From Omnitrophica bacterium GWA2_41_15 (GTDB lineage: Bacteria; Omnitrophota; Gorgyraeia; Gygaellales; Profunditerraquicolaceae): a stretch of DNA of 62,141 bases. Positions 33,445-57,710 of this stretch are shown here, piece after piece. Position 1 is the first letter of the stretch; every line of letters starts with the position of its first letter. Location: assembly GCA_919902445.1 (NCBI GenBank), contig CAKKQZ010000060.1, positions 1 through 62,141 of the forward strand. Reading direction: 5' to 3'. Below the pieces are notes generated by a model. The model was given only the letters and a program-made list of their open reading frames with translations. It was not told the origin of the DNA and did not search any database. The position numbers and the translations under genes are program-made.

Positions 33445-33447
33445 TCC

Positions 33448-34077: not shown

Positions 34078-34080
34078 ATA

Positions 34081-34674: not shown

Positions 34675-34720
34675 CTAATATTTGATACGAGAACTGAGAA
34701 TCTAGCATCAAGGATATAGA

Positions 34721-38942: not shown

Positions 38943-40121
38943 ATGATTTCCTGGACAAAATTATTATCCTCCCCGAATGATTTAAAGAGGGGTTTTGAGA
39001 ATAACGGCCAGGATATAAAACCGGTAATAGTCTGGAATATAACTTCGTCCTGCAACCTCTCATGCTGTCATTGTTACCTTGAGTCATCAAAGATTCCTGC
39101 AGCCGAGATTCTCGATACGCAAAAATGCAAGAAAATCATCCTTGATTTAGCGGGATTTGGCGTTCCTGCGCTTCTTTTTTCCGGAGGAGAGCCGCTTTTA
39201 CGCAAAGACATATTTGAACTGGCAGAATTTTCCCGCCGATACGGTATAAGGCCGGTGCTTTCCAGCAACGGAACTTTAATTACCGAATCTAAGGCAAGGA
39301 AGATAAAAACTTCAGGCATAGAATATGCCGGTATAAGTATTGACGGTAAACCGGATACTCATGATAAATTGCGCGGCGAGAAAGGTTCATTTAAGAAGGC
39401 CGCCCTTGGGATAAGGAATTGTAAAGATGCGGGGGTAAAAGTTGGCGTGCGCTTTACTTTAATGAAGGATAATTCAAAAGATTTAGATTTTATTTTTAAT
39501 TTTGCGAGAAAAGAAAAGGTCAATCGCCTCTGCATTTACCATTTGGTTTATTCCGGGAGAGGAAGGCGGGAGAAAGAACTTTCCTTGGAAGAGAAAAGGG
39601 ACTGCCTTGAATTAATCTGGAATTACTCGGATACTTTCCATAGAGAGGATGAGCAAACCGAGATTCTTACAGTGGATAACCACTGCGACGGGGTATGGAT
39701 TTACCATAAAATGCTAAAATTCGATGAAGAGAGGGCAAACAAAATATTGAATTCTCTTTTGAAAAGCGGGGGAAACCAATCAGGGGTTTGTATCGGCTGC
39801 ATTGATTACCGGGGAGATGTTTATATAGATCAGTTTACGCGCGGGCATTCTTTAGGTAATGTAACCAAGAGGAAATTCGGTGAAATATGGGAGGATGAAA
39901 GCAATCTTTTGCTTTACGGATTAAGGCACCGCAAGGATTTTATCAAAGGAAGGTGCAAAGGATGCAGTTTTTTTTCTATCTGTAACGGCAATATGCGCGC
40001 CAGGGCGCAAGCAGTATACGGAGATTTCTGGGAAGAAGACCCCGGCTGTTACTTAAGCAACGAGGAGATAAATGTTGACGGATATCCGGCTGATATTCTG
40101 GGAAACTACAAGGGCTTGTAA
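38943..40121 (+). CDS. radical SAM/SPASM protein, AhbC/AhbD/NirJ family
   Basis: CNLSCCHCY radical SAM cluster, GGEPLL, and a C-terminal Cys-rich SPASM-like region CKGCSFFSICNGNMRA. Confidence 0.7.
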   Translation: MISWTKLLSSPNDLKRGFENNGQDIKPVIVWNITSSCNLSCCHCYLESSKIPAAEILDTQKCKKIILDLAGFGVPALLFSGGEPLLRKDIFELAEFSRRYGIRPVLSSNGTLITESKARKIKTSGIEYAGISIDGKPDTHDKLRGEKGSFKKAALGIRNCKDAGVKVGVRFTLMKDNSKDLDFIFNFARKEKVNRLCIYHLVYSGRGRREKELSLEEKRDCLELIWNYSDTFHREDEQTEILTVDNHCDGVWIYHKMLKFDEERANKILNSLLKSGGNQSGVCIGCIDYRGDVYIDQFTRGHSLGNVTKRKFGEIWEDESNLLLYGLRHRKDFIKGRCKGCSFFSICNGNMRARAQAVYGDFWEEDPGCYLSNEEINVDGYPADILGNYKGL

Positions 40122-41112
40122 CCTCGGATGCCCTCATTGTAGGGCTAGCGCAACCACTGAACCTTCACCCGAAGATTTAACCACGGATGAAGTAAAGAAA
40201 TTTATGGAACAGGCGGCTACATTTAGCAGGCCGATTTTAGTATTTTCCGGAGGAGAGCCGATATTGCGTAATGATCTGTATGAACTGCTTAGTTACGCAA
40301 ACAAGTTGGGATTAAAGCCGGCGCTGGCAACCAACGCCACTTTGATTTCCGAAGAAATTGCCTATAAATTAAAAGATAATGGCCTTAGCCTTGCTTCTGT
40401 TTCGATTTATGGCGCAAATGCAGAATCTCACGATTCATTTTGCGGGTTAAACGGCGCCTTTGAGAAGACATTAAAAGGAATAAATAATCTAAAAAAGGCA
40501 AAAGTCAATGTGCAGATAAATACTACTATAAGCAAAAAAAATTTAAAAGAATTGGAGGTAATAGGAGATTTTGCTTTAAAAATCGGCGCAGTAGCGTACC
40601 ATACCTTCTTTTTAGTTCCCACAGGCAGAGGAAGATATATCGAGGATGATGAAATATCCTCTCAAGAATATGAGAAGGCATTCAATCGCTTATATGATTA
40701 TCAGAAAGTTTTTCCTCTACGCATAAAAGCAACTTGCGCTCCCCATTATTACCGGATTTTACATATGAAAGAAGCAAAAACTAACGAAAGGTCAGACAAT
40801 GAGAAAAGTCGAGGCAAAGGATGCCTTGCCGGTCAGGGTGTTTGCTTTATCTCTCATAAGGGTGAGGTATTTGGTTGTGGATATTTACCTATTATAGCCG
40901 GTAACATTAGAAAACAAGATTTTAGGGATATTTGGTTTAAAAGTGAACTTTTTATAACCTTAAGAGATAATTCAAGATTACAGGGTAAATGCGGAGTTTG
41001 TGAATTTAAGGATGTCTGTGGTGGTTGTAGGGCGCGTGCCTATGCAGCCACAGGAAATTATTTAGAGGAGGATACAAAATGCGCCTATCAGCCCTTGACA
41101 AAAAGATTTTAA
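40072..41112 (+). CDS. radical SAM/SPASM protein, AhbC/AhbD/NirJ family (second copy)
   Basis: CNLGCPHC, GGEPIL, and C-terminal CGVCEFKDVCGGCRARA. Confidence 0.7.
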   Translation: MLTDIRLIFWETTRACNLGCPHCRASATTEPSPEDLTTDEVKKFMEQAATFSRPILVFSGGEPILRNDLYELLSYANKLGLKPALATNATLISEEIAYKLKDNGLSLASVSIYGANAESHDSFCGLNGAFEKTLKGINNLKKAKVNVQINTTISKKNLKELEVIGDFALKIGAVAYHTFFLVPTGRGRYIEDDEISSQEYEKAFNRLYDYQKVFPLRIKATCAPHYYRILHMKEAKTNERSDNEKSRGKGCLAGQGVCFISHKGEVFGCGYLPIIAGNIRKQDFRDIWFKSELFITLRDNSRLQGKCGVCEFKDVCGGCRARAYAATGNYLEEDTKCAYQPLTKRF

Positions 41113-41528
41113 ATAAAATTCAAGAAGATATTCCGTTAGTTCCTGAGCCATTTAAGGCATTGGCTAAAGATACAGGCGTTACTGAAGAGGATTTATTTAA
41201 GAGAATAGAAGAATTAAAAAACAAAGGAATCATCAGAGGCCATGCTGTAGGCATAAATCATAAAATTTTAGGTTTTAAGAGTACGCTTTTGGGCTTAAGA
41301 GTGTTGCAAGATAAGGTTGAAAGCTTAGGTAAAGAACTTGCGGCATATCCGGAAATTACCCATTGTTTCCAGCGTAAAGGTGAATTTAATCTCTGGGCTG
41401 TATTCATTTATAAGGATGGGAGATTAAAAGAGTTCCTGGATAAACTTGGCCAAAAAATTGGCAAAGAAAATATCTTGAATCTCAAGACATTAAGAAAGTT
41501 TAAGCTAAAGACAAGATTGAAGATTTAA
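41079..41528 (+). CDS. AsnC/Lrp-fold siroheme decarboxylase subunit (AhbA/AhbB/NirDLGH family)
   Basis: LDKKILNKIQEDIPLVPEPFKALAKDTGVTEEDLFKRIEELKNKGIIRG is the typical N-terminus of this family. Confidence 0.7.
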   Translation: MRLSALDKKILNKIQEDIPLVPEPFKALAKDTGVTEEDLFKRIEELKNKGIIRGHAVGINHKILGFKSTLLGLRVLQDKVESLGKELAAYPEITHCFQRKGEFNLWAVFIYKDGRLKEFLDKLGQKIGKENILNLKTLRKFKLKTRLKI

Positions 41529-41541: not shown

Positions 41542-41570
41542 TTGACAAACAGGATTAAGTTATTTATCAT
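41542..41570 (+). promoter_or_regulatory. sigma70-type promoter (TTGACA-17 nt-TATCAT)
   Basis: The TTG taken as the ORF start in the track is the -35 hexamer. The -10 is at 41565-41570. Confidence 0.55.
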
Positions 41571-41622
41571 AGGTTTATTCAGTTGTTTATTCAGTAACAG
41601 GTGTGCCATGAGGGAGGTTAGG

Positions 41623-42963
41623 ATGGGAAGAAAAAATCTGGTATTGTTAGGTATAAGTTTTTTTATGAGTTTATTTTTTATTAATTCTGCTTTTGCTATA
41701 CCTACCTTTGCCCGTAAGTATCGCACCAGTTGTAATACCTGCCATATAGCCATACCCAAACTAACTGCTTTTGGTGAATCTTATCGTTTGAATGGTTATC
41801 AGATTCCCGAAGGAGATGCAGCCTATGTAAAAGAAGAGCCGGTAAGTTTAGGTGCGCCTGCCTGGAAAAGGGTCTGGCCCGAGGCAGTTTGGCCGGGTAT
41901 GATTCCAGGGCCGGTGCCACTTTCCGTAAGAATCATTTCTGATTTTAAAGTTAATCAGGCAAGTGAAGCCGCAAGTACAGACTTTAATTTTCCCCATGAA
42001 ATAGAGTTGATGATGGCTGGCCTTTTAGATGAAAATCTGCCATTTTTTGCCGAAATTGAATTTGAAAAAGAGACTAGTTCAAGTTCAGTAGAAACTGATG
42101 TTGAGGCCTGGCTTGGTTTCTATAATCTATTTAGTAATGCATTACCGGAAAGGGCTCTTAATCTGAAAGTGGGAACGCTGGGGATTAATCCTTTACCTAT
42201 GGCTAATGACCACCTAAGAATCGGAAAGAACCACTATTTATATAATGACTGGAGATTAAGTAGCGCTTCTTCTGGAGCCAATGGTTTTCGTTTGAGAGAT
42301 CATCGAGGAGGTTTAGAACTGAATGGAATTTTGGCTGACCGCTTCTGGTACGGTGGCGGTGTAGTTAATGGAGTAAATTCTACGGATAAAGACGGTTATA
42401 TTATTACAAGATATAAATTCGGCGGGACACCTTTTAGCAAGTCAGCTCCTGGCGGAGGAACTGAAGAGGCCATAAAAGGGAAGGCAAGTGGTTTCTGGGT
42501 GGATAATGCCTTGGAGTTAGCCAGCTTTGGCTATTTTGGTTCCACGGAGATTGGTGCAGCAGCTACTGCTAACCAGGAAGACGATAAATTCTGGCGCGCG
42601 GGATTTGCTTTGCGCAATACCTACCAAAATTTTGATCTTAATGCCGGCTATATCTGGGGCAACAATGATGATCCTTATGGTAGTAGTAGCGCTCAGAACA
42701 TAAATTCACAAAGTTGGTTTGTGGAGACAAACTATGTATTTAAACCCTGGCTTATCGGAGAATTAAGATACGAAGCACTTGACGTAGATATGCCCACAGA
42801 TTTCACAGTTACCAATTTAGATAGGGCAAGGTGGGTTCCTGGTTTAATCTTTCAGATCAGGCCCAATATTAAGCTGGTGGCAGAGGCTTTAATCTACAGT
42901 AAGTATAAAGTAGCCAGTGATAGACAGAATAACTTTGTAGCGCGTTTGGATGCCAACTTTTAG
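41623..42963 (+). CDS. fused monoheme cytochrome c / outer-membrane beta-barrel, Cyc2-like candidate
   Basis: ATG 41623 after GGGAGG. Signal peptide ending SAFA, then PTFARKYRTSCNTCH (single CXXCH). About 400 aa rich in Gly and aromatic residues, ending in ...FVARLDANF (OMP-type C-terminal Phe). Confidence 0.6.
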   Translation: MGRKNLVLLGISFFMSLFFINSAFAIPTFARKYRTSCNTCHIAIPKLTAFGESYRLNGYQIPEGDAAYVKEEPVSLGAPAWKRVWPEAVWPGMIPGPVPLSVRIISDFKVNQASEAASTDFNFPHEIELMMAGLLDENLPFFAEIEFEKETSSSSVETDVEAWLGFYNLFSNALPERALNLKVGTLGINPLPMANDHLRIGKNHYLYNDWRLSSASSGANGFRLRDHRGGLELNGILADRFWYGGGVVNGVNSTDKDGYIITRYKFGGTPFSKSAPGGGTEEAIKGKASGFWVDNALELASFGYFGSTEIGAAATANQEDDKFWRAGFALRNTYQNFDLNAGYIWGNNDDPYGSSSAQNINSQSWFVETNYVFKPWLIGELRYEALDVDMPTDFTVTNLDRARWVPGLIFQIRPNIKLVAEALIYSKYKVASDRQNNFVARLDANF

Positions 42964-43004
42964 TGAGTGTTAGCAGTATCTTAGTTTGGCTACTTAAAAT
43001 TGAG

Positions 43005-43044
43005 AACCCTTCCCCCCTTTTTATGAGGGGAAGGGTTATTTTTT
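43005..43044 (+). terminator. rho-independent terminator
   Basis: 11-bp stem AACCCTTCCCC / GGGGAAGGGTT followed by ATTTTTT. Confidence 0.65.
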
Positions 43045-43058
43045 AAGGAGGTAAGCAA

Positions 43059-43640
43059 ATGGGAAGAGTCATTTCTATTTTTTTGTTTTTGGTTATTTTC
43101 TGTTCAGAACCCTCTTTTGCAGGAGTAATTAAAGGCAAAGTTTCAACAGCGAAGTTAAAGGCACCCAAAGACATTGTAGTATATATAGACAAAATAGAAG
43201 GAAAAGAGCTTTCTTCATCTGGAGAGCCTGCAAAGATGGACCAGATTAAGCTGGTGTTTATCCCTTATGTTCTTCCTATAATCAAAGGCACAACTGTTGA
43301 GTTTCATAATAGTGATGATGTAAAGCATAATGTCTTTGCTGTAGGTACAGAAAATTTTGATTTAGGTACCTGGACCAAGGGGATCACCAAGTCATATACC
43401 TTTAATAAATTAGGAGATACAGCCATTCTTTGTAATGTGCATCCTGAAATGGAGGCATATGTTTTTGTGCTCCAGAATCCCTATTTTGCTATTACTGATG
43501 AAAATGGACAATACCAGATAAAAGATGTTCCCAGTGGTAGCTATAAATTAAAGGCCTGGCATAATCGGTTAAAGCCGGTTACAAAAGATGTGGATGTAGC
43601 TGCATCAGGAGAACTAAGTGTAGATTTTGAGCTCAAATAG
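43059..43640 (+). CDS. secreted type-1-like cupredoxin fused to a carboxypeptidase-regulatory-like (CarboxypepD_reg) domain
   Basis: Signal peptide. Candidate Cu ligands FHNSDDVKHNV ... CNVHPEM. Then ITDENGQYQIKDVPSGSYKLKAWH. Confidence 0.7.
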   Translation: MGRVISIFLFLVIFCSEPSFAGVIKGKVSTAKLKAPKDIVVYIDKIEGKELSSSGEPAKMDQIKLVFIPYVLPIIKGTTVEFHNSDDVKHNVFAVGTENFDLGTWTKGITKSYTFNKLGDTAILCNVHPEMEAYVFVLQNPYFAITDENGQYQIKDVPSGSYKLKAWHNRLKPVTKDVDVAASGELSVDFELK

Positions 43641-44150
43641 ATGAAAATAAAAAACAATATTCTTATCTTAGGTTTTTTATTTTGTGGTCTGGGTATTTTA
43701 GCAGGCCTTTTGCTGGCGAAGGCTAAGGTTTCTCTTCCTGTGCATAGACAGATTAGTATTGTATCTTATAAATATGGATATGAGCCAGCTGTGATACGGG
43801 TAAATCAAGGAGATACGATTACTTTGAAGTTAAAATCTAAAGACGTAACCCATGGTTTTTATCTTGAGGGGTATGATTTTGATGCCAAGGTAAGAGGGGA
43901 GATGCCGAGTTTCTGGATCAGGCATCCTTCGAAAAGCGAAGAATACGATAAAAACCCGATAGAAACCTATACCTTTGTGGCAAATAAGCCGGGTAAGTTT
44001 CGTTACCGTTGTTCTATAACTTGCGGCTCATTTCACCCATTTATGCAGGGAGAAATGATTGTTGTGCCCAATTACCTCTTCCCTGTTTCTACCGGGTTAG
44101 CTTTAGGTATGGTCTTTACCTGCCTGATTTATTTTAAGCGAAAAAGATGA
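43641..44150 (+). CDS. membrane-anchored cupredoxin with CuA-type motif (type A)
   Basis: N- and C-terminal TM helices. DVTHGF plus CSITCGSFHPFM (C-x3-C-x3-H-x2-M). Paralogue of 57711-58187. Confidence 0.65.
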   Translation: MKIKNNILILGFLFCGLGILAGLLLAKAKVSLPVHRQISIVSYKYGYEPAVIRVNQGDTITLKLKSKDVTHGFYLEGYDFDAKVRGEMPSFWIRHPSKSEEYDKNPIETYTFVANKPGKFRYRCSITCGSFHPFMQGEMIVVPNYLFPVSTGLALGMVFTCLIYFKRKR

Positions 44151-46978
44151 TTGATTTATTTGAAAAATTGCCCTTTTTATTAAAAGTCTGTAAAAGCCGA
44201 TGGCTGCAGTTTATCATTGTCTTTCCTACCTTATTAATATTTATTGTTTTTCTTTATGCCGGCATTTTTGGAACTCCGGTAGGAAACAAAAATATTATCA
44301 TTGTGTTTGTTTGGATTTTCTGGTGGATTTTGCTTATCGGTTTTATGGTGCCATTTGCATCACGTATATGGTGCTTGGTATGTCCTTTCCCGATTATTGG
44401 CGAATGGCTTCAACGTATGGCATTTATTAAGGTAAGGACTAGCGATACCCTATCAGGCTTAAAAAGTAAATACTTCGGAAAAAATAAACCTTGGCCAAAG
44501 AAACACAGGCACATCTGGTTTCAAAGCCTGGGTTTTCTATCCTTGGCGGTATTCAGCCCATTTTTAGTTACGCGCCCCTTTGTAAGTTTCATTGTCTTGG
44601 GTGGGTTATTTGCGGCGGCAACAGCATTAAGTTTAATCTATAAACAAAGGGTATTTTGTATGTATCTTTGCCCGGTAAGTGGATTCTTAGGGCTTTATTC
44701 TATGACCTCAAAACTTGGGCTTCGGGCAAAAGATGTAGAGTTGTGCAACCGCATTAAGAAAGATGAAGAGTTTAATTTTGATTATGGCATTGCAGCTTGT
44801 AGATTAAGCTGTCCCACAGGCATGGATGCCTCAAGTTATATTGCACTTATAGGCAGAGGCAGATACAAAGAAGCCCTGGAGGTAATAAAAGAAGCATCCC
44901 CCTTTGCTGGCGTTTTAGGCAGGGTGTGCACTCACCCCTGCGAGACTGAATGTGTTCGCAAAGAACTGGATGAGCCCATTTCTATTTGCCGCCTGAAGAG
45001 GTTTGTGGGAGATTATATAGGCTACAATGAGATGCAGCCAGCACAGGAGTTTAAACCGCGTTATAAAGAAAAAATAGCTATTATAGGCGCTGGACCTGCA
45101 GGTTTATCCTGCGCCTATCATTTAGTCAGGAATGGATACCAGACTACTGTTTATGAGGCACTTCCTGTTGCCGGCGGGATGATAAGAGTGGGCATTCCTT
45201 CATATAGACTGCCCAAAGACATTGTTGATAGAGAGATAGAGTATATAAAAAATAGTGGCGCGGATATTCGGACCAATATAGAGATTGGTCGGGATTTAGA
45301 TTTTGAGGAATTAAGAAAGGAGAACCAAGCAATATTTATTGCTGTTGGCGCTTCAGAGTCAAGGAGGCTGAAGATAGAAGGAGAGGATTTAAAAGGTGTT
45401 TACAATGCAATAGATATTTTACAGAAAGTAAGTTTGGGAGAGAAATTAGATTTGGGTAAAAGGGTTATAGTTATTGGCGGAGGTGATACAGCAATAGATA
45501 CAGCCCGGGCAATGCTCAGGCTGGGTTGCAATGAAGTCAGGATAGCATATCGGCGCACTAGAGACGAAATGCCTGCTATACCTGAAGAGGTAGTTGCTGC
45601 AGAAAAGGAAGGTATAAAAATAGATTTTCTTACTGCGCCGGTAAAGATTGAAGGAAGCAATGGCAGGGCAACATCCCTTCTCTGCACAAAGATGAGGTTA
45701 GGTCAACCTGATGAATCTGGAAGGCCACAACCTGTGCAAATCAAGGGTTCTGAGTATCTGATTTCAACTGACAGTATAATTGTAGCTACCGGACAATATT
45801 CAGATATAAACTTTTTACCCAAGGAATTAAGCATAAGTACTGCTGGCACCATAATCGTGGATACTCAAGACATGGTTACTAATATCCCTGGTATTTTTGC
45901 TGGTGGAGATGTGGTGAGCGGGCCTGATATTCTCGTTAAGGCCTTAGGTATGGGTAGGAGGGCTTCTATCGCCATTGACAGGTACCTGCGAGGTGAAGAA
46001 TTAAGCCGTATTTCTTTTTATCCTTCAGAGAAGAGGGTTGAGGAGGTACCCATAGGAATAATTGACAGAGAAGATAGGGTTAAATCACGCTTTCGACCAA
46101 TTGAGGAACGCATTAAAGATTTTAAAGAAGTAGAAGAGGTGTTTACAGAAAATATGGCAGTTCGGGAAGCCAAGAGATGCTTGAGTTGCGGAATATGCGG
46201 GGCGTGTTACCGTGGTTCAGATAAAGGATGGGCCTGCGCTTGGTTTGAAAAGATGGGGGGAATGGATAGAAATAATTATTGTGGCTTATGTATGGAGTGC
46301 GTAAAAAGCTGCCCCTATGATAATATCGGGCTCTATTGGCGGCCATTTGCTTGGGATAAAGATATCAAGGGTTATGATGAATCCTGGAAGTCCTTTATTA
46401 TGCTAGTCTTAGCGATTATTTATTCTATCAATTTGTTAAGCCCTTGGGGCAAGCTTAAGAATTTTCTTAACTTTACTGAAACAGGCACAGTAGGTCATTT
46501 TATCTTACTTAGTGTGAATATGCTTTTATGGTGCCTGGCACTATTTCCATCTATTCATTATCTCTTCTGCAAATTTTCCCAGTTGTTATCTAGGTCTAAA
46601 GAGGTGGAGACAAAAGAATTATTCTTAAAGTATTCCTATGCTTATGTTCCTTTGGGTCTTATGGCCTGGGTGTGTTTTAGCGTGCCGCTACTATTGATTA
46701 ATGGCAGTTATATCCTGGCAGTGATTTCCGACCCCTTTGGTTGGGGCTGGAACCTTTTTGGCACAGCGCATCTTCATTGGAGCCCTATATTACCGCACTG
46801 GGTTCCTTACATACAGGCACTTTTTATATTAGCAGGACTTTTCTACTCTGTAGTATCTGTATTTAAAATAGCCAAGAGGATATTTTCTCAAAAAGAAGAG
46901 GCTTTAAAAAGTATTATTCCCATAGTTGCGCTGCTTTTAATAATAACTATAATCTTTTTTAGGTTATATTTGGGTTAG
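44147..46978 (+). CDS. NapH-like polytopic Fe-S membrane protein with an inserted GltD-like NAD(P)H flavoprotein module
   Basis: WCLVCPFP and FCMYLCPVSG in the TM region. Insert carries CPTGMD...CTHPCETEC, IAIIGAGPAGL and VIGGGDTAID. It rejoins at CGLCMECVKSCPYDN, and the C-terminal TM part ISDPFGWGWNLFGTAH is shared with ORF 58180. Confidence 0.75.
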   Translation: MIDLFEKLPFLLKVCKSRWLQFIIVFPTLLIFIVFLYAGIFGTPVGNKNIIIVFVWIFWWILLIGFMVPFASRIWCLVCPFPIIGEWLQRMAFIKVRTSDTLSGLKSKYFGKNKPWPKKHRHIWFQSLGFLSLAVFSPFLVTRPFVSFIVLGGLFAAATALSLIYKQRVFCMYLCPVSGFLGLYSMTSKLGLRAKDVELCNRIKKDEEFNFDYGIAACRLSCPTGMDASSYIALIGRGRYKEALEVIKEASPFAGVLGRVCTHPCETECVRKELDEPISICRLKRFVGDYIGYNEMQPAQEFKPRYKEKIAIIGAGPAGLSCAYHLVRNGYQTTVYEALPVAGGMIRVGIPSYRLPKDIVDREIEYIKNSGADIRTNIEIGRDLDFEELRKENQAIFIAVGASESRRLKIEGEDLKGVYNAIDILQKVSLGEKLDLGKRVIVIGGGDTAIDTARAMLRLGCNEVRIAYRRTRDEMPAIPEEVVAAEKEGIKIDFLTAPVKIEGSNGRATSLLCTKMRLGQPDESGRPQPVQIKGSEYLISTDSIIVATGQYSDINFLPKELSISTAGTIIVDTQDMVTNIPGIFAGGDVVSGPDILVKALGMGRRASIAIDRYLRGEELSRISFYPSEKRVEEVPIGIIDREDRVKSRFRPIEERIKDFKEVEEVFTENMAVREAKRCLSCGICGACYRGSDKGWACAWFEKMGGMDRNNYCGLCMECVKSCPYDNIGLYWRPFAWDKDIKGYDESWKSFIMLVLAIIYSINLLSPWGKLKNFLNFTETGTVGHFILLSVNMLLWCLALFPSIHYLFCKFSQLLSRSKEVETKELFLKYSYAYVPLGLMAWVCFSVPLLLINGSYILAVISDPFGWGWNLFGTAHLHWSPILPHWVPYIQALFILAGLFYSVVSVFKIAKRIFSQKEEALKSIIPIVALLLIITIIFFRLYLG

Positions 46979-46983
46979 GGGTA

Positions 46984-47457
46984 ATGAAAAAAGAAAATAT
47001 AATAGAGATTTTTCTTTTAGTTTTAGTGGTGGCGTCGGTCATTTTACTCCCCCTTGTTATTATAAAAATTGATAAATACTATCTGGCCAGAAAATTTCCT
47101 AAAAATGCACAGGTGATAACCCTTTACGGCATAGCCAAGGGAGGCCTCTGGACCCAGGAACCGGTTAACAGCTTTAATTACTGGTGGAAGAGGTTTAAAC
47201 GTGCAGAAGAAATTCCCATCCGTGATGACGGCACTCCTATTTTTTTCCGCATAACCAGCACAGACGTGGTACACAGTTTTGCTATTCCTCTTTATCGTAT
47301 AGGTCCTTATGATATAAAGCCAGGAGAATTTACAGAGGTTGAACTTAAAACAGATAAAGAATTAGTAGATACGGGCTTTCTCTGTTGGCAATATTGCGAT
47401 AAAGACCACGAACATATGAAAGGCAGATTAGTTATCTTACCTAAAAATGAGGAGTGA
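46984..47457 (+). CDS. N-terminally anchored cupredoxin with CuA-type motif (type B)
   Basis: TM helix. DVVHSF plus CWQYCDKDHEHM (C-x3-C-x3-H-x2-M). Paralogue of 59609-59998. Confidence 0.6.
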   Translation: MKKENIIEIFLLVLVVASVILLPLVIIKIDKYYLARKFPKNAQVITLYGIAKGGLWTQEPVNSFNYWWKRFKRAEEIPIRDDGTPIFFRITSTDVVHSFAIPLYRIGPYDIKPGEFTEVELKTDKELVDTGFLCWQYCDKDHEHMKGRLVILPKNEE

Positions 47458-48110
47458 AAATTTTTAAAAAATTTATTTTTGTTAGCTTTTTAGCAATATT
47501 TTTTTCACTTATTATAGCCAGCCTCTTTCCTGAAGAAGCTAGCCATAAGTATTTCTATCAGGCACCTTGGTTTAAGTTCCTCTGGTTTATTGTTTCTATT
47601 GGTATAATTATTGTTTTTGTTAATTCTGTCCAAAGAAGAGATTTTGGATTTTCTATAATTTACCTGGGCCTTCTTCTTGTTTTACTGGCGGGCCTTTTGG
47701 CATCCTTATTCAAAGAAGAAGGGTTTATGGAGATGAAAAAAGGCCAGACTCAAGATGACTTCTGGATTAATGATGAGTCTTCAAAATCCTTAGGCTTTTC
47801 CCTATCTTTAAAGGATTTTTCAGTGGAATTTTATCCTAAAGAAGTAAAAGGGATGCGTTTTATTAAAGCTTATAAGACTTCCGTAGGAATTAGCAGAAAT
47901 GGGAAATTGCTTAAAGAGGCTACTATCGAAGTAAACAAGCCTTTAACCTTTGAGGGGTTTTGGTTTTATCAGTATGGTTATGAACCTAAGCTTCCTGAGC
48001 AAACTGTCCTGCAAGTAGTTAAAGATCCCGGACTTCCTTTAGCCTATAGTGGATATTTAATTTTGATGTTAGGTCTAGTGTTCTCATTCAGACGCCTATG
48101 GAAAATTTAG
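47454..48110 (+). CDS. ccsB: short ResB/CcsB-like cytochrome c biogenesis protein
   Basis: TM helices flank LSLKDFSVEFYP...EVNKPLTFEGFWFYQYGY...VVKDPGLP, a ResB-like periplasmic pattern. Much shorter than typical ResB. Confidence 0.6.
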   Translation: MKIFKKFIFVSFLAIFFSLIIASLFPEEASHKYFYQAPWFKFLWFIVSIGIIIVFVNSVQRRDFGFSIIYLGLLLVLLAGLLASLFKEEGFMEMKKGQTQDDFWINDESSKSLGFSLSLKDFSVEFYPKEVKGMRFIKAYKTSVGISRNGKLLKEATIEVNKPLTFEGFWFYQYGYEPKLPEQTVLQVVKDPGLPLAYSGYLILMLGLVFSFRRLWKI

Positions 48111-48862
48111 TTTTAATTTTATATTTACTTTCTTTACTTTTCTATTTTTTATCTTATTTTTTTAAACATAAGTTTTTTTCTCGCTTAGGCTTAATATTTT
48201 TAAGCACAGGACTCCTGTGTAGCTTCTATTTAGCAAGCACACATTTTTATACTACTCAACGCTTACCCTTAACTAACACATCTGAGACTCTTTTTTCACT
48301 GGTTACTCTTGTGGTTCTAGTGTATCTGGCATTAGAATGGAAGTTAGGATTGCCCAGAATATTGGGCTTGAGTGTTAGCTTGATTTCTCTTTCAGGTCTA
48401 TATTTAGCCTTTTACTTTTTCAAAAAGCCTTTGTTGCCTTTACTGCCTGCCCTGCAGAGCAGATGGCTGGTTTTTCATGTTTCAAGTTGTATTGTTGCTT
48501 ATGGTTTTTTTACCCTTGCATTTATCTGCGCAATAATTTACCTTGCCAGGAGCAATCCCGCGCTCATTATTTTCTCTATTATGCACCGTTCTATCTCTGT
48601 GGGGTTTTTATTTCTAACGCTGGGAATAATCTTGGGTTCAATCTGGGGTAAGTCTGCGTGGGGGCACTGGTGGAATTGGGATCCCAAGGAGACCTGGGCG
48701 TTAATTACCTGGTTTATTTATGCTGGCTATATGCATGCCAAATTATTTGGTAATTGGCCTAAAAGGAAACTTGCCCAAATAGCCGTCTTAGGATTTTTGT
48801 CTTGTCTTTTTACTTACCTAGGTGTAAATTATATTTTAAGAGGTTTACATAGCTATGCGTAA
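48098..48862 (+). CDS. ccsA: cytochrome c assembly protein CcsA (system II)
   Basis: Trp-rich WAWGHWWNWDPKETWALITW motif and polytopic profile. Confidence 0.85.
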   Translation: MENLVLILYLLSLLFYFLSYFFKHKFFSRLGLIFLSTGLLCSFYLASTHFYTTQRLPLTNTSETLFSLVTLVVLVYLALEWKLGLPRILGLSVSLISLSGLYLAFYFFKKPLLPLLPALQSRWLVFHVSSCIVAYGFFTLAFICAIIYLARSNPALIIFSIMHRSISVGFLFLTLGIILGSIWGKSAWGHWWNWDPKETWALITWFIYAGYMHAKLFGNWPKRKLAQIAVLGFLSCLFTYLGVNYILRGLHSYA

Positions 48863-49652
48863 AAATAAAATTAAAAATCAAAAAACTCTGCCAGAGAACG
48901 CGGTATATTCACCAATAATTATGGTGGAAAAAATAAAAATTATATTTGGCCTTTTACATTTTGTATCTGTCTTGTTGTTGCCTAGCATTGGATTTTGTGA
49001 CGTCTTGCGTTTGAGAGAAGTCCCAAAAGACAAAGAGGGAAATGAAGTTGAAATCTTGGAGGAAAAAGCAGACGCCTTTATTATTAAGGTTCCCAAGGAC
49101 GAGATTGAAGTAATCCTGAGAAAGCGCCCCACAGAGGCGAAGCTTTGGCATGAAAAACGAATTCTCTGGGAAGAAACCGGCGACTACATAACTATTTATT
49201 TACCAAAAGAAAAGATTATACTTCCTGAGGACTATAAAGGCGATGAATATGATGCCGCCAAAGGCTTAAAAAAAGAACTAACCTCAACAGGAGCTGAAGG
49301 AAGGCCTCCGGAGGCTACTTTTTGGAAAGGCACAAGCAAGATAACTGGTAGAATTTTAAATGGAGGAAACCCTTTATCTGGAGTTAAGATTAGAATTGTC
49401 AATGTTCCTTCTCAGGTGAGCGCGCTCTCCCAGATTCTTGGACCAAAGGTAGAAAGTCAGAAGGAATTGGTCTTTGATGCTACGACAAATGAATTAGGCT
49501 GGTATGAGTTAACTAATATCCCTATGGGAGAATATGATATCTTTTGGTCACTTCCCGGCAGTGAAAGTTGGTATCGCAAGCTAAGTGAAAAACCCAACAT
49601 CACCGTAAGACCGGGTGAGACAGTAAATTATCCAGATATAGAAACAAAATAG
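48855..49652 (+). CDS. secreted hypothetical protein with a CarboxypepD_reg-like C-terminal domain
   Basis: Hydrophobic N-terminus. ITGRILNGGNPLSGVKIRIVN and GWYELTNIPMGEYDIFW. Start codon is uncertain. Confidence 0.4.
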   Translation: MRKNKIKNQKTLPENAVYSPIIMVEKIKIIFGLLHFVSVLLLPSIGFCDVLRLREVPKDKEGNEVEILEEKADAFIIKVPKDEIEVILRKRPTEAKLWHEKRILWEETGDYITIYLPKEKIILPEDYKGDEYDAAKGLKKELTSTGAEGRPPEATFWKGTSKITGRILNGGNPLSGVKIRIVNVPSQVSALSQILGPKVESQKELVFDATTNELGWYELTNIPMGEYDIFWSLPGSESWYRKLSEKPNITVRPGETVNYPDIETK

Positions 49653-49657
49653 CGAAA

Positions 49658-50752
49658 ATGGACTTTTTGATTTTAGGGTTAAATCATAAAACTGCGCCTG
49701 TAGAAATTAGAGAAAGGGTTTCTTTTTCTACATCCGGTATTTCCTGCGCCTTAAGACTCTTACAAAAATACCCTTTTGTTAGTGAGTCTCTTATACTTTC
49801 TACCTGTAACCGAGTTGAGCTCTATGCAGTTGTGGAAGATAAAGTAGAAGGTTTAAAGAGCCTTAAAGAATTTCTATACCGATATCATGAACTCAAAGAT
49901 TCCTTAGACCCGTATCTTTATTTTTATGAAAATGAGCTTGCGCTTAGACATACCTTTAGAGTTACATCATCATTAGACTCTATGGTCGTAGGAGAAAATC
50001 AGATACTCCATCAGGTAAGGCAGGCGTATCTGAGGGCGCAGGAAGCAGGTTCAACGGGTAGAGTTTTAACTTCCGTCTTTCAGGAGGCCTTGCGGGTGGC
50101 AAAGATGGCGCGCACTCAAACTGGAATCAATAAAGGAGCCGTTTCCATAGGTAGTGTAGCTGTAGAATTGGCAAAGGAGATATTAAAGGATTTAAAAGAT
50201 AAAAAAATATTAATTATTGGTGCAGGAAAAGTTAGTGAGCTAACAGTAAAAAACTTAGCAGAGCGAGGAGTAAATTTAATTCTGGTGGCAAACCGTACCT
50301 TTGAAAATGCTCTAAAGCTTGCCCAAATCTTTCAAGGTGAGGCTATAAAGTTTGATAAGTTAAATGAGGTTTTAAAAGAGGTTGATATTGTAATCAGTTC
50401 TACCAATTCTCCCCATTATATTTTAAGAAAAAAAGATATACTTTCAGTTATTAGTGAAAGAGGCCATAAGCCATTATTTCTTATCGACTTAAGCGTTCCC
50501 AGAAATATAGAACACGCTGTCTCAGAGATCAAAGATACGCATCTTTATAATATTGATGACCTTCAGAAGATAAGCCAGTTAAATCTAAAGGAAAGATTAA
50601 AAGAAGCCCATAAAGCAGAGAAAATAGTTAAAGAAGAATCAGATAAGTTTTATGCTAAGATAACAGATATCTTTTTATATGGGCATATGATTGTTGATGT
50701 GAAAGAGGCAATGATGGGATGTTTAAACATCCCCTTTGTGGGTAGTTCATAA
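49658..50752 (+). CDS. hemA: glutamyl-tRNA reductase
   Basis: LGLNHKTAPVEIRE, LSTCNRVELY, GENQIL, IGAGK. C-terminal dimerisation region is shorter than usual. Confidence 0.9.
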   Translation: MDFLILGLNHKTAPVEIRERVSFSTSGISCALRLLQKYPFVSESLILSTCNRVELYAVVEDKVEGLKSLKEFLYRYHELKDSLDPYLYFYENELALRHTFRVTSSLDSMVVGENQILHQVRQAYLRAQEAGSTGRVLTSVFQEALRVAKMARTQTGINKGAVSIGSVAVELAKEILKDLKDKKILIIGAGKVSELTVKNLAERGVNLILVANRTFENALKLAQIFQGEAIKFDKLNEVLKEVDIVISSTNSPHYILRKKDILSVISERGHKPLFLIDLSVPRNIEHAVSEIKDTHLYNIDDLQKISQLNLKERLKEAHKAEKIVKEESDKFYAKITDIFLYGHMIVDVKEAMMGCLNIPFVGSS

Positions 50753-51272: not shown

Positions 51273-51677
51273 ATGCAATTTATCCTACGCAATTCTGACT
51301 ACGCATTAAGAAGCCTCAGCTTTTTGGCAGGCCTTCCTAGGGGTAAGAAAATCAAAGTAAGCACAATAGCGGAAAAACAGGATCTGCCCCCTGCTTTTTT
51401 AAGGAAGATCCTTCTTAAGCTATCCAAGGCGAGGATTGTTGAGTCCAGATCCGGGCCCTGCGGAGGTTTCTCTTTGTCAAGGAAGCCGTCTCAGATTAGC
51501 TTAAAAGAGGTTTTAGAGGCGGTTCAGGGCCGCGTTTCCCTGAATGACTGCCTGTATGATTCTAATTTCTGCAGCCGCTGGAGAAGGTGCAGTGTCAGGC
51601 CGGGGTTATCCGTAATACAGGATAAGTTAATAGGCCTGCTCGATGAATGTAATCTCGGGGATTTTCTTAAGTTATGA
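51273..51677 (+). CDS. Rrf2-family (IscR/NsrR-like) Fe-S transcriptional regulator
   Basis: N-terminal wHTH (DYALRSLSFLA) and a three-Cys cluster CLYDSNFCSRWRRC. The stop codon overlaps the start of the molybdoenzyme gene. Confidence 0.85.
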   Translation: MQFILRNSDYALRSLSFLAGLPRGKKIKVSTIAEKQDLPPAFLRKILLKLSKARIVESRSGPCGGFSLSRKPSQISLKEVLEAVQGRVSLNDCLYDSNFCSRWRRCSVRPGLSVIQDKLIGLLDECNLGDFLKL

Positions 51678-54600
51678 AAAAAATAACACGTAAGCAGTTT
51701 TTAAAGATTTCCCTTGCTTCTTTTGCCGGGTTAATGATGAGTAAGCCGCTCCTTGCAAGCCTCAAGGTAATCCCTGAAGTAGATGATCCATTGCAATATT
51801 ATCCTGATAGGGACTGGGAGAAGATTTACCGCGACCAGTATAGGTATGACTCAACCTTTCACTTCCTATGCGCGCCCAATGATACGCATAACTGTTTATT
51901 AAAGGCTTATGTAAAGAACGATACTGTAATCAAAATAGGCCCGAGTTACGGATACGGAAAGGCAAAGGATATTTACGGTAATCAGGCAAGCCACAGGTGG
52001 GATCCCCGCCTTTGCCAAAAAGGATTGGCTTTAATCCGCAGGATCTACGGCCCAAGAAGAGTGAAGTATCCGATGGTAAGGGAGGGTTTTAAGAAATGGC
52101 TGGATGCAGGATTCCCGAGGGATGAACTGGGGAGGATTCCTCAGGAGTACATTAACCGCGGGAAAGAATCATTTGTAAAGGTTACCTTTGAAGAGGCGAG
52201 CGAGATCGTAGCAAAGGCAATGGTTAATATCGCAACTACTTACACCGGGGATACCGGCAAAGAATTACTGACTAAACAGGGATATGATGAAGCGATGATT
52301 GAGGCAATGAAAGGTGCCGGGACGCAGGTATTAAAGGTACGCGGCGGAATGCCGCTTTTAGGCGCAACCAGGATTTTTGGATTCCAACGTTTTGCTAATT
52401 CCATTGCCTTGCTTGATGATAAAATCAGGAATGTTGGAAAAGAGAACGCCATAGGCGCGCGCAGCTGGGATAGTTATTCTTGGCATACGGATTTGCCTCC
52501 GGGCCACACCATGGTCTGCGGCCAGCAGACAATAGATTTTGATTTAGCCACGGTAGAAAATTCAAAGATAGTGATCTGCTGGGGGATGAACTGGATTTCA
52601 ACCAAGATGCCCGACGCGCATTGGCTCACCGAGGCAAGGGTTAAAGGGACAAAGGTAATAACAATAGCTTGCGAATACCAGTCTACCTCCAATAAGGCAG
52701 ACGCAGCGATAGTCATCCGTCCGGGAAGCGACACTGCTTTTGCGCTGGGGATGGCCAATATTATAATCAGCGAGAAACTTTATGACGTTGATTTTATAAA
52801 AGCCCAGACAGACCTCCCGTTTTTAGTGCGTATGGATACCCTTAAACTTTTAAAGCCGCAGGATGTTATACGTGATTATAAAAATAAGGAATTGCAAAAT
52901 ACGCAGGTTCTTAAAAAAGGAGAAGAAGCCCTAGCGCCTATAAAACAGGACCGCCAGGTAATCGCGGAAAATTTGCGGGAAGAATGGGGAGATTTTCTCG
53001 TATGGAGCCTTGATAAAAATAAAATAGAGGTGATTAGCAGGGATGATGCCGCGGTTGCGGGTAATTTTGCCCTGGAAGGAGAATTTACCCTTGAAACAGT
53101 TGACGGCAAGAAAATTACTGCGCGCCCGGTATTTGATTTAGTAAAAGAGAATGCCTCTTATTTTACTCCGGAAGTAACAAGCGATATCTGCCATGTGAGC
53201 AAAGAGGCGGTAGTTGAGCTTGCGCGTCAAATAGCCGCAGATAAATCCCAAACCTTAATCGCTGTCGGCATGGGGCCAAATCACTTCTTTAATAATGACC
53301 TTAAAGACCGCGCGATATTCCTCGTATGCGCCCTGACAAAAAACATCGGATTCCATAGCGGTAATATAGGCAGTTTCGCCGGAAATTACCGCGGCGCGTA
53401 TTTTAACGGACTGCCTTTTTATATTACAGAAGACCCGTTCAATATAGAATTAGAGCCGGAGAAATTACCGCATAAAAAATCTTACTACAAGGCAGAGTCA
53501 GCGCATTATTATAATTACGGCGATAGGCCTTTACGGGTAGGCAACAAGCTTTTTACAGGTAAGACCCACATACCCACCCCTACTAAATTTATGTGGTTTG
53601 GAAACGGAAATTCCATTCTCGGCAATTTGAAGTGGCACCATGATTTTGTGATGAACACCCTCCCTAAGATAGAATGTGTAGTGGTTAACGAATGGTGGTG
53701 GACTGCATCCTGCGAATACGCTGATGTTGTCTTTGCGGTTGATTCCTGGGCGGAGTTTAAATTCCCGGATATGACAGCCGCCGTGACAAACCCGTTTTTT
53801 CAAATATTTCCCCGCACGCCTTTAAAAAGGCTGCACGACACAAGAAGCGATATTGAGACATTTGCGCAGGTAAGCAAGGCGCTGGCAGCAATTACAGGCG
53901 ACAGCCGTTTTATTGACTACTGGAAATTCGTGCATGAAGGCAAAGTTGAAACTTATTTACAAAGGATAATCGATAATTCGAGCACGCTTAAAGGTTATAA
54001 TATAGAAGAAGTAGAGGCGAATGCAAAAGAAGGGATACCCGCTTTGATTATGACGCGCACCTATCCGAAAATAATGGGTTGGGAGCAGTCAAATGAAAAC
54101 AAGCCGCATTATACAAAATCGGGAAGGATGGAGTTTTACCGGGATGAAAACGAATTTTTAGAGTACGGTGAAAATATTCCGGTGCACCGCGAGCCTGTGG
54201 ATGCGACTTTTTATGAGCCGAATGTTATTGTCTGCGGAGCAAAAGATTTAATCAGGCCCAAGGGCCCGCAGGATTACGGATTATCCCTTGAGGATCAATC
54301 CTGCGAAGTGAGGCAGGTGCGCAATGTGGTGGTTGCCCCGGCAAATCTTACAAAAACCAAACATCCAAGAATAAAAGACGGCTTAGCATTTATTTATATC
54401 ACCCCTAAGTACCGCCACGGAGCGCATACGACTCCGGTTGATACCGATATTATCTCCATGTGGTTCGGCCCGTTCGGCGACCCGTATCGCAGGGACAACA
54501 GGATGCCCTGGGTCGGCGAAGGTTATGTGGATATAAACCCTGAAGACGCCAAGGAATCAGGTATCGAAGACGGGGATTACGTATATATTGACGCTGATCC

Positions 54601-57633: not shown

Positions 57634-57690
57634 GGACACCCTTTCTGCTAAAGCTAAGCCGCTCTTTCTGCCAATCTTAAGGGTGTCCCC
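57632..57690. repeat. 59-nt TIR element (copy B)
   Basis: AGGGACACCCTT ... AAGGGTGTCCC terminal inverted repeats (11 bp). The interior matches copy A at 30151-30209 in reverse orientation. Confidence 0.7.
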
Positions 57691-57710
57691 AATAAGGTAA
57701 GGAATAAGAA

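Follow-up and report, generated by a model that had tools for sequence, protein, structure and literature searches.

A Cyc2-type porin-cytochrome, copper proteins and a NapH-like/NfnB-type fusion encoded in one Omnitrophica gene cluster: a candidate trans-envelope electron conduit

Genes of the cluster

The 62,141-nucleotide contig CAKKQZ010000060.1 of Omnitrophica bacterium GWA2_41_15 (assembly GCA_919902445.1; the whole contig is called the window here) carries on its forward strand, between 41.5 and 50.8 kb, a cluster of eight genes that may specify an electron conduit across the cell envelope. In order, they encode a Cyc2-type monohaem cytochrome-porin of the outer membrane (41623-42963), a secreted type-1 cupredoxin of 193 amino acids (aa) with a CarboxypepD_reg beta-sandwich (43059-43640), CuA cupredoxin A (CuA_A, 169 aa; 43641-44150), a 943-aa NapH-like poly-Fe-S membrane protein with nine transmembrane (TM) helices and an NfnB-type insert (44147-46978), CuA cupredoxin B (CuA_B, 157 aa; 46984-47457), a CcsB/ResB-like cytochrome c biogenesis protein (47454-48110), the System II haem lyase/channel CcsA (48098-48862), and an exported 265-aa CarboxypepD_reg protein (48855-49652). 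With hemA (49658-50752), the last gene of the set, the open reading frames (ORFs) number nine. From the type-1 cupredoxin through hemA (43059-50752), intergenic gaps are between -13 and +5 bases, and these genes are translationally coupled. Domain calls were made by Pfam and NCBIfam profile searches against family cut-offs; together with the ORF list they bear out the gene order given in a preliminary description of this DNA, including hemA behind the cluster and the Ahb genes and moeA ahead of it. That description had also found the window to be without haem-copper oxidase subunit I, bc1, alternative complex III or multihaem cytochrome, and profile searches of the window proteins likewise returned none of these. 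Relatives are cited below by L-numbers (independent contigs or loci that hold them) and P-numbers (relative proteins).

Keffer et al. (2021, PMC8406198) recognize a Cyc2 protein by a signal peptide, a single CXXCH flanked by two motifs, a minimum length of 365 aa and a 16-strand porin. The motifs are AXPXFAR[Q/K][T/Y], whose Arg stands five residues ahead of the first Cys, and PXL, which comes four residues behind the His. The window protein (446 aa) begins with a signal peptide, judged by eye, in which MGRKNLVLLGISFFMSLFFINSAFA precedes the residues IP and provides a hydrophobic h-region and an AFA site. Its motif AIPTFARKYRTSCNTCHIAIPKL lies in a haem region, AIPTFARKY-RTS-CNTCH-IAI-PKL, that matches the Cyc2 motif, and its CXXCH is the sole one among all 156 window ORFs of at least 60 aa. 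Residues F29, R31, C37, C40 and H41 are invariant in 46 homologues; of the 120 best homologues, 119 contain a single CXXCH and 109 terminate in Phe, as the window protein does. An AlphaFold2 (AF2) model, with a predicted local distance difference test score (pLDDT) of 80.4 and a predicted template-modelling score (pTM) of 0.79, shows 16 strands, and Foldseek matched it to the 16-strand porins PorB, OmpF, OprP (2o4v) and OprO (4rjx). A sequence search of the PDB with the same protein gave no match. The OprP and OprO structures are those cited by Keffer et al. (PMC8406198). In sequence and predicted fold, the putative outer-membrane protein agrees with all such criteria published for Cyc2. Every Cyc2 protein that has been tested biochemically is an Fe(II) oxidase (PMC8406198).

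The longest ORF for this protein (41542-42963, 473 aa) opens at a TTG at 41542 and has no Pfam match. The true start is probably the ATG at 41623, because the NCBI model is 446 aa long and a promoter-like -35 hexamer begins at the TTG. The best sigma-70-like match of the region, TTGACA-17-TATCAT (11 of 12 positions, 41542-41570), overlaps that TTG. Since the promoter scan gave 29 consensus matches in total against 33.4 in shuffles, which is not above chance, only the two best match positions are mentioned. Between the Cyc2-like and cupredoxin genes, a consensus scan alone marks a GC-rich hairpin of 13 pairs with a T-run (43005-43037, unstranded), possibly an attenuator or terminator. The promoter-like match over the TTG and the hairpin with its T-run suggest separate dosage control of the outer-membrane protein.

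The type-1 cupredoxin has a signal peptide, a CarboxypepD_reg domain above the cut-off and a Pfam Copper-bind match of 19.2 bits, under the cut-off of 21.2; from its sequence, it is best read as a divergent Copper-bind member. Its ligand set H...C-N-V-H-P-E-M (H...C-x2-H-x2-M) is invariant in five of five close homologues. Metagenome homologues retain C-x2-H-x2-M in 59 of 62 cases by one count and in all 62 by a recount, and 46 of the 62 also have an upstream D-x-V-x-H. The separate 265-aa CarboxypepD_reg protein, assigned by Pfam and bearing an N-terminal hydrophobic segment, has homologues in L001, L089 and L091 and in 10 metagenome loci, and is a recurrent companion of the Cyc2/cupredoxin pair.

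CuA_A matches Cupredoxin_1 with 29.8 bits (cut-off 27) and consists of an N-terminal signal or anchor, a periplasmic domain, a C-terminal TM helix and a KRKR tail. CuA_B, with an N-terminal TM anchor and a periplasmic COX2-like domain, matches COX2 with 25.9 bits (cut-off 22) and CoxB with 51.7 bits. Both carry a CuA motif, CSITCGSFHPFM in CuA_A and CWQYCDKDHEHM in CuA_B. The corresponding ligands, a His plus C-x3-C-x3-H-x2-M, are invariant in 13 of 13 CuA_A homologues and kept in eight of nine CuA_B homologues, the exception being a one-residue insertion. The copper-ligand motifs of all three proteins are thus conserved, as the preliminary description had required of its reading. Its count of three cupredoxins is right for the cluster; the window holds five, including a paralogous pair (CuA_A2 and CuA_B2) discussed below. 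Genes for the copper chaperone SCO1/SenC occur in related clusters (L088 and L089 among them).

The CcsB/ResB-like protein (PF05140, 88 bits) is unusually short, at 218 aa, and in L001 and L089 the ResB-like part is fused to CcsA. CcsA itself matches TIGR03144 with 192.1 bits (cut-off 187.6) and contains the W-rich motif WGHWWNWDPKETW, so that both elements by which System II is recognized, CcsA and a ResB-like partner, are present. The glutamyl-tRNA reductase HemA (TIGR01035, 394.7 bits) is short as well: it has 364 aa, no GlutR_dimer domain and an odd C-terminus, and the profile match covers positions 1-337 of 416. HemA occupies the same cluster position in L001, L002, L089 and L091, where the relatives are likewise short (326-348 aa). 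Directly upstream of the cluster, on the same strand, lie AhbC/NirJ1-like, AhbD-like and AhbA/B-like genes of alternative haem synthesis (38943-41528), assigned as best profile matches with scores under the curated cut-offs. A MoeA gene is also upstream.

The 943-aa fusion has a 100% identical counterpart at NCBI, from a metagenome-assembled genome (MAG) labelled 'Candidatus Omnitrophota bacterium'. Its first 200 residues (44147-44746) hold TM1-4, the invariant motifs C76-x2-C79-P and C171-x3-C175-P at the cytoplasmic membrane face, and C200. Residues 215-685 (44789-46201) form the NfnB-type insert, with Fer4_20, the FAD motif GxGxxG (312-319), an NADPH Rossmann motif (441-451) and a YRR motif. 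Residues 678-730 (46178-46336) contain the cysteines of a NapH-type ferredoxin domain, C678, C681 and the invariant C712-x2-C715-x2-C718-x3-C722-P. The remainder (aa 743-943, 46373-46978) comprises TM5-9 and a conserved periplasmic loop, S861-D-P-x3-G-W...T873...W878-x-P. Profile matches to Fer4_20 and Pyr_redox_2 are strong at residues 216-615 (75.9 and 116.3 bits), with a ferredoxin motif near 710-730. At the N-terminus, the NapH-type Fer4_5 match is weak (16.2 bits, cut-off 22), and the NapH motifs are present and invariant. The CcoG-type Fer4_18 and FixG_C Ig-like domains gave no Pfam match at E ≤0.1.

The preliminary description had called the flavin part GltD. It was right in seeing an NADPH flavoprotein; however, the insert scores 432 bits against 9bov_A, the NADPH-binding subunit of NfnABC (44% identity by Foldseek, probability 1.00), and about 240 bits against GltD, the small subunit of glutamate synthase. 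By sequence comparison and model, the flavin part therefore appears nearer to the NfnB-type NADPH/FAD/2x[4Fe-4S] subunits of NfnABC, StnABC and NfnI than to GltD. Both of its Rossmann motifs are invariant among homologues. The insert is placed in the cytoplasmic cluster loop, bounded by C200 and by the 'GWAC(A/P)W' cysteine that belongs to the first ferredoxin cluster. Since it sits amid the cysteines of that cluster, it is probably wired into the Fe-S chain. Foldseek with the fusion model returned only flavin-domain relatives, with no solved relative of the membrane fold detected, and a PDB sequence search with the unfused NapH-like protein gave no match.

In an alignment of 27 family members, fused and unfused, the invariant positions are the four cysteines of the CX2-3CP motifs, which lie where TM2 and TM4 end on the cytoplasmic side, together with C200, C712, C715, C718, C722 and the loop S861-D-P...G-W...T873. 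Hydropathy and the AF2 model agree on nine TM helices and put both the N-terminus and the large domain on the inside, and Lys and Arg residues number about 20 in the predicted cytoplasmic loops against four in the periplasmic ones. In P0027, P0024 and P0032, CuA_A and the NapH-like protein form one fused chain. P0027 has the order signal peptide, CuA_A, TM helix, fusion, and P0024 adds a thioredoxin-like domain in front; P0032, the Undinarchaeales protein P0346 and several Nar-type proteins run CuA_A, TM helix, then NapH-like. Such natural CuA-TM-NapH fusions imply a cytoplasmic N-terminus and a cupredoxin outside. The flavin module is accordingly predicted to be cytoplasmic and the cupredoxins periplasmic, the sidedness that the preliminary description had made a condition of its reading. 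The thioredoxin-like N-terminal domain of the Latescibacter-type fusions was also considered as a peroxiredoxin or Sco protein and ruled out, as the cysteines are lacking.

Relatives of the inner and outer modules

Co-conservation of the gene set had been named beforehand as a test, and the same order recurs in nine independent contigs of different phyla (L001, L088, L089, L090, L091, L092, L099, L169 and L173). The gene arrangement is not due to chance. The fusion in L173 (80% identity) follows Cyc2-like, type-1 cupredoxin, PilJ-like and CuA_A genes and precedes CuA_B. In L001 and L089 (fusion 75% identical) the order is SCO1, type-1 cupredoxin, CuA_A, optionally a PilJ-like gene, fusion, CuA_B, ResB/CcsA, CarboxypepD_reg, hemA and ahb genes. 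L088 (67%) has a regulator, Cyc2-like, type-1 cupredoxin, SCO1, a second type-1 cupredoxin, CuA_A, PilJ-like and the fusion; L090 (58%) has a cupredoxin, CuA_A, the fusion and CuA_B. CuA_A, fusion and CuA_B thus stand together in L001, L089, L090 and L173, and within this close clade Cyc2-like and type-1 cupredoxin genes lie upstream wherever the contig extends that far (the window, L088 and L173). A PilJ-domain protein of about 295 aa is found beside CuA_A in L088 (6935-7831), L089 (1777-2661) and L173 (2123-3007) and is absent from the window.

Other contigs have the cluster in unfused form. In L091 a Cyc2-like gene (69% identity) is followed by type-1 cupredoxin, CuA_A, a 474-aa NapH-like protein, CuA_B, ResB, CcsA, CarboxypepD_reg and hemA. 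L092 (Acidobacteriota), L099 and L169 are like L091 in having no insert, with CuA_B fused to a cytochrome c domain. Full-length fusions are rare: they form about 31 clusters at 90% identity, and at 50% identity about seven representatives among 1.84 billion. A scan of a genome collection with the full fusion alignment returned mostly NfnB/GltD-only proteins, with L008 as the only full-length match; the scan pattern lay in the flavin domain and was hence swamped by such proteins, so this result gives no taxon-wide co-occurrence. A Latescibacter MAG encodes a fusion of 49% identity amid a barrel that lacks haem and ends in ...GLAF, with mono-, di- and hexahaem cytochromes as separate proteins. 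More distant fusions, of 38% identity, occur in Dehalococcoidia and others (L003:9408-14316, L004:934-7188, L008:9359-19967). These have no cupredoxins beside them; their neighbours are YtkA-like proteins, thioredoxins, an ArsP-type permease and CcdA, and L008 lies near COX2/COX1/CtaB-like haem-copper oxidase genes.

The window holds a second copy of the inner part. Behind hemA, after a gap of 520 bases, an Rrf2 regulator is followed by a divergent type II DMSO-reductase-family enzyme of the Methanoperedens Nar/Nxr-like type (51273-57633, forward strand, by profile matches), with a 1140-aa alpha subunit (twin-arginine translocation (TAT)-like signal TRKQFLK), a beta subunit, a NarJ-like chaperone and an EB_dh haem-b gamma subunit. 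About 8 kb downstream of the cluster, a paralogous trio without flavin insert follows on the same strand (57711-59998): CuA_A2 (57711-58187), a 474-aa NapH-like protein (58180-59604) and CuA_B2 (59609-59998). The molybdenum enzyme plus the trio span 51674-59998. The NapH-like paralogue shares the CX2-3CP motifs, the ferredoxin motif and a C-terminal 'SDPF(A/G)WGWNLFGTA' loop. With the insert removed, the fusion is 59%, 56% and 50% identical to Cyc2-associated NapH-like proteins versus 37-40% to Nar-associated ones. This split indicates two orthologous groups, with the flavin domain acquired inside the Cyc2-associated group.

The trio has a published counterpart. The nar operon of Methanoperedens encodes NarG, NarH, NarJ, Orf7, HCO-II (signal peptide, one TM), NapH (nine TM) and HCO-II (one TM) (Arshad et al. 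2015, PMC4683180). The NapH there has five TM helices in addition to four, and all genes of the operon are highly transcribed (PMC4683180); the enzyme is now termed a non-canonical nitrate reductase (PMC13079737), and the CuA-NapH module has been read as the donor to this periplasmic reductase (PMC4683180, PMC13079737). Compared with the published table, HCOII-NapH-HCOII is the same trio, in order and TM counts, as the inner module of the fusion cluster. In Methanoperedens it goes with NarG-NarH-NarJ-Orf7, a linkage that the paralogue at 57711-59998 shares and the fusion cluster, belonging to the separate 37-40% identical group, does not; the copy of the fusion cluster instead goes with Cyc2, the type-1 cupredoxin and the NfnB-type domain. 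The Methanoperedens module, too, has been described from genomes only. The same Nar-type cluster is found in 'Ca. Hakubella', an Undinarchaeales archaeon and other bacteria. Identities of its NapH-like subunit span 62-94% over bacterial phyla and DPANN archaea (120 best homologues listed), which implies strong constraint and horizontal spread. In the Undinarchaeales locus L006 (12251-15502), the Nar-type cluster is followed by AhbA/B-like and AhbC/D-like genes, a second EB_dh and SCO1, a haem-gene linkage that mirrors the one in the window. The nxr cluster of Kuenenia was considered as a source of the CuA/NapH module and ruled out, since it has cytochromes and a bd-like protein in place of this module.

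The outer genes have a wider distribution of their own. Metagenomes scanned with the Cyc2-like alignment yielded 80 loci, and where at least 700 bases of downstream sequence were available, a type-1 cupredoxin gene adjoined the Cyc2-like gene in 55 of 60 loci (after it in 52, before it in three). With at least 2.8 kb downstream (33 loci), the next genes were CuA_A, NapH-like and CuA_B in four and a soluble 630-aa NfnB-like protein with a C-terminal 2x[4Fe-4S] part in 14. The latter protein is 33-43% identical to the fusion insert, and its gene is present in 20 of the 80 loci overall. In at least six of those 20 (L120, L136, L148, L153 and L171, and less completely L165), Rieske/cytochrome b genes come after it; L136 (4020-13047), for instance, as also L120, L148, L153 and L171, runs Cyc2-like, type-1 cupredoxin, NfnB-like/2x[4Fe-4S], Rieske, cytochrome b6-like, SUIV-like, octahaem c and monohaem c. 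Still other loci of the Cyc2 clade have Rieske/cytochrome b without a flavoprotein, a 13-TM protein with cytochromes c, or a TAT-exported Mo/Fe-S enzyme. Cyc2 and type-1 cupredoxin form a portable outer module that docks on CuA-NapH or on Rieske/cytochrome b complexes. A pyridine-nucleotide flavoprotein is repeatedly linked to this module in two unrelated membrane contexts, and the window presents the fused case. The connection that the preliminary description had drawn between an outer-membrane cytochrome and a pyridine-nucleotide flavoprotein is therefore real and recurrent. In Kuenenia, Rieske/cytochrome b complexes with an NAD(P) oxidoreductase subunit are encoded by Kustd1480-1485 and Kuste4569-4574 (Hauser et al. 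2025, PMC12954380). Formation of NAD(P)H by quinol-based bifurcation has been proposed for them, with recent support from Rieske potentials and models (PMC12954380).

Candidate electron path and its alternatives

We propose that the cluster could encode a trans-envelope electron conduit built of two portable modules. The outer one would consist of the Cyc2-type porin-cytochrome, the soluble periplasmic type-1 cupredoxin and, probably, the exported CarboxypepD_reg protein; the dedicated CcsBA system would serve it, with haem-synthesis genes in the same coupled set. The inner one would comprise the two single-span, periplasm-facing CuA cupredoxins and the 9-TM NapH-like poly-Fe-S protein in the cytoplasmic membrane. 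Electrons might pass from NADPH to FAD and along the [4Fe-4S] chain to a Cys4 site of the CX2-3CP motifs, cross the membrane in a menaquinone-mediated step, and continue from CuA to type-1 copper and the Cyc2 haem. The end point would be a high-potential acceptor outside the cell or the neighbouring periplasmic nitrate-reductase-type enzyme. Natural fusions and the Methanoperedens precedent suggest that CuA_A, the fusion and CuA_B may form one complex, and the analogy of rusticyanin suggests that the type-1 cupredoxin may shuttle between CuA and the Cyc2 haem. We infer the direction of flow, and give an about even chance to transfer from NADPH (probably together with menaquinol) through copper to Cyc2 or to the neighbouring enzyme.

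The role given to menaquinone follows from the presence of MenA in the window and from the nature of NapH proteins, which are quinol dehydrogenase subunits. Furthermore, as the membrane part has no conserved ligand, menaquinone is the only reasonable carrier. The preliminary description had proposed as the simplest wiring a line from outer-membrane haem through copper and Fe-S centres to FAD/NAD(P)H. Its parts and their membrane sides agree with our predictions, but it ignores the probable part of menaquinone and the lack of a conserved ligand within the membrane. The standard potentials are -320 mV for NADP+/NADPH, about -70 mV for menaquinone, and about +180 to +370 mV for CuA and type-1 copper; neutrophilic Cyc2 reportedly lies at about +200 mV. 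With such textbook values, the step from NADPH to copper is strongly downhill. The reverse, from copper (~+250 mV) to NADP+ (-320 mV), is about 570 mV uphill and runs against the membrane potential, so that a direct flow from Fe(II) to NADP+ is implausible. A quinone loop in this geometry would move electrons and protons together and could thus harvest a pH gradient only. It would seem that NADPH-to-copper flow and a quinol-bifurcating scheme are alone thermodynamically reasonable, with no coupling device evident; the earlier suggestion that the conduit might run in either direction is doubtful for the same reasons.

Several observations weigh against an outward path from NADPH. In the 27-member alignment, the TM and periplasmic NapH-like parts have no conserved His, Cys or Met as candidate ligands of haem b or copper, and the membrane-crossing step, with no visible cofactor, rests on an assumed quinone. 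The tested Cyc2 proteins are Fe(II)-oxidizing electron-uptake devices. Copper centres at about +250 mV are poor reductants for Fe(III) oxides, hence an exit route needs an unusually oxidizing acceptor. Passing electrons from NADPH to copper wastes more than 500 mV with no evident energy conservation. The insert-free versions of the cluster (L091, L092) do without the NADPH domain, and the neighbours of the distant fusion clade point to a copper- or thiol-directed reductase there, perhaps in a maturation-type use.

The NapH-like/CuA complex might instead generate NADPH by splitting the electrons of menaquinol, a scheme that we consider rather unlikely. One electron would go downhill to CuA, type-1 copper and Cyc2 or nitrate reductase, and the other uphill through the Fe-S chain and FAD to NADP+; with menaquinone at -70, NADP at -320 and CuA at about +250 mV (textbook values), the overall reaction is near equilibrium. 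Such bifurcation would account for the invariant cytoplasmic clusters of NapH-type proteins despite their periplasmic partners. The closest solved relatives of the insert are bifurcating enzymes, and the same Cyc2/cupredoxin pair stands with the soluble NfnB-like protein in the 20 of 80 loci described above, at least six of them with the anammox Rieske/cytochrome b architecture. However, the membrane part offers no b haems or other cofactor as a route for the low-potential electron, the anammox scheme is unproven in its turn, and we know of no Qo-like site in NapH proteins. If bifurcation did occur, improbable as we hold it, the complex would be a haem-free analogue of the anammox NAD(P)-reducing Rieske/cytochrome b complexes, the Cyc2/type-1-cupredoxin pair would be a general outer plug for bifurcating membrane complexes, and the puzzling cytoplasmic clusters of NapH-type proteins would have a function.

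Uptake of electrons from Fe(II) or another outside donor, oxidized by Cyc2 and passed through type-1 copper and CuA to the nitrate-reductase-type enzyme, is unlikely in our judgement. Variants would lead them into the menaquinone pool together with NADPH electrons, as bifurcation reversed, or to NADP+ driven by the proton motive force, as in the 'uphill' branch of Acidithiobacillus. Uptake is what tested Cyc2 proteins do, and Cyc2 with a blue copper protein is the Acidithiobacillus design. The high-potential carriers would suit Fe(II)-to-nitrate transfer, and 2 kb away lies a Nar/Nxr-like enzyme that is TAT-exported and has a CuA pair to itself; in other loci the outer module stands beside Rieske/cytochrome b complexes, a device for uphill flow. 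Against this, the step from CuA to NADP+ is about 570 mV uphill and directed against the membrane potential, a quinone loop of this geometry would harvest a pH gradient only, nitrate as a sink would need neither the NADPH domain nor tight coupling to a membrane Fe-S protein, and the window suggests organotrophy. A non-respiratory function, in which a CcoG-like protein would use NADPH to supply Cu(I) or reduced periplasmic Cys/copper sites, is quite improbable. CcoG, a NapH-type protein, is a cupric reductase, SCO1 genes and CcsBA occur within the clusters, and the distant fusion clade goes with YtkA-like proteins, thioredoxins and CcdA near haem-copper oxidase genes. Nevertheless, the covalent fusion of CuA_A in several lineages and the constant flanking by both CuA genes would be expected if the cupredoxins were subunits rather than substrates; the paralogous trio is a stoichiometric, highly expressed part of the Methanoperedens nar operon, and the FixG_C or CcoG-type domains were not detected. 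It is barely credible that there is no system at all, the genes being neighbours merely by a common need for haem and copper cofactors in a cofactor-biosynthesis operon. Haem and molybdenum cofactor genes do surround the cluster, but its order is kept in at least nine independent contigs of different phyla, with gene fusions and translational overlaps besides.

Described systems and the genomic surroundings

The preliminary description had known of no system with this composition. That holds for the whole: we found no open-access description of a Cyc2-cupredoxin-CuA/NapH cluster, of a NapH-NfnB fusion or of such an Omnitrophota cluster. It does not hold for the parts, as each building block has a described relative in Cyc2-rusticyanin of Acidithiobacillus, HCOII-NapH-HCOII of Methanoperedens or the NAD(P)-linked Rieske/cytochrome b complexes of anammox bacteria. 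The rus operon of Acidithiobacillus ferrooxidans likewise joins an outer-membrane Cyc2 and a periplasmic type-1 copper protein in one operon. Its chain ends in a cytochrome c and an aa3 oxidase, or runs uphill through bc1 and NDH-1, whereas oxidase subunit I, bc1 and further cytochromes c are absent from the window, where a CuA/Fe-S/flavin complex is the inner partner and the cupredoxin carries a CarboxypepD_reg domain. In the window system, as in the anammox complexes, the high-potential centres lie on the positive side and the cytoplasm holds an Fe-S/FAD/NAD(P) module. In contrast to those complexes, the window has no Rieske protein, cytochrome b or multihaem cytochrome, CuA and the NapH-like protein stand in their place, and the flavin module is fused instead of being a separate subunit.

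The NapGH/NosGH proteins appear to resemble the fusion in their four N-terminal TM helices, two CX3CP-type motifs and cytoplasmic poly-ferredoxin, and the role of membrane donor to a periplasmic redox enzyme may be common to both. Unlike these systems, the window encodes no NapG/NosG partner and no catalytic subunit (NapA or NapAB, NosZ), the NapH-like protein has five extra TM helices, and CuA cupredoxins are its periplasmic partners. The insert is 36-44% identical (Foldseek) to the NADPH/FAD/2x[4Fe-4S] subunit of NfnAB, NfnABC and StnABC; however, the window domain is embedded in a membrane protein, no NfnA/S-type partner was seen in the window, and bifurcation is in this case a proposal only. 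The logic of a trans-envelope conduit with its own maturation genes is that of MtrCAB and PioAB/MtoAB. The window system would differ from them in using one haem and three copper centres rather than at least 20 haems, and in a fused inner end that is NADPH-linked and not a quinol-oxidizing tetrahaem protein.

These comparisons bear on several wider questions. Cytoplasmic Fe-S clusters that serve periplasmic enzymes are a long-standing puzzle in NapH, NosH and NosR, for which the natural fusion, with CuA partners that flank it or are covalently joined to it, would give a defined donor and acceptor for testing. The HCOII-NapH-HCOII part of Methanoperedens is a portable membrane module of wide occurrence, employed with an outer-membrane cytochrome as well. 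As a marker of iron oxidation, Cyc2 homologues are in wide use, and the large clade considered here is almost always paired with a blue copper protein. This clade docks on several inner-membrane complexes, many with an NAD(P) module, which bears on the link between the extracellular space and the pyridine nucleotides; its contexts raise the question whether these Cyc2 homologues mean iron oxidation at all. Besides, a conduit built mainly of copper, as against multihaem cytochromes, would be an unusual design for extracellular electron transfer.

Elsewhere the window encodes enolase, enzymes of beta-oxidation, proteins of chemotaxis and of pili, a Rnf/Nqr-type complex and MenA. The beta-oxidation genes, the Rnf/Nqr-type complex and MenA suggest an organotroph with menaquinone. 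The beta-oxidation set (7687-14945) comprises a thioesterase, an acyl-CoA ligase-like protein, a thiolase, a hydratase/3-hydroxyacyl-CoA dehydrogenase and an acyl-CoA dehydrogenase. A hybrid Rnf/Nqr-type set (30329-35794) consists of an RnfC-like protein, RnfD, an FMN-binding RnfG-like protein, two Rnf/Nqr membrane subunits and an NqrF-like 2Fe-2S/FAD/NAD protein; behind it come MenA, a polyprenyl synthase and MoeA. The chemotaxis and pilus genes are interspersed with two AAA_14/DUF4143 ATPase genes and an IS200-like Y1 transposase (19726-21012, 23978-25207 and 28689-29279).

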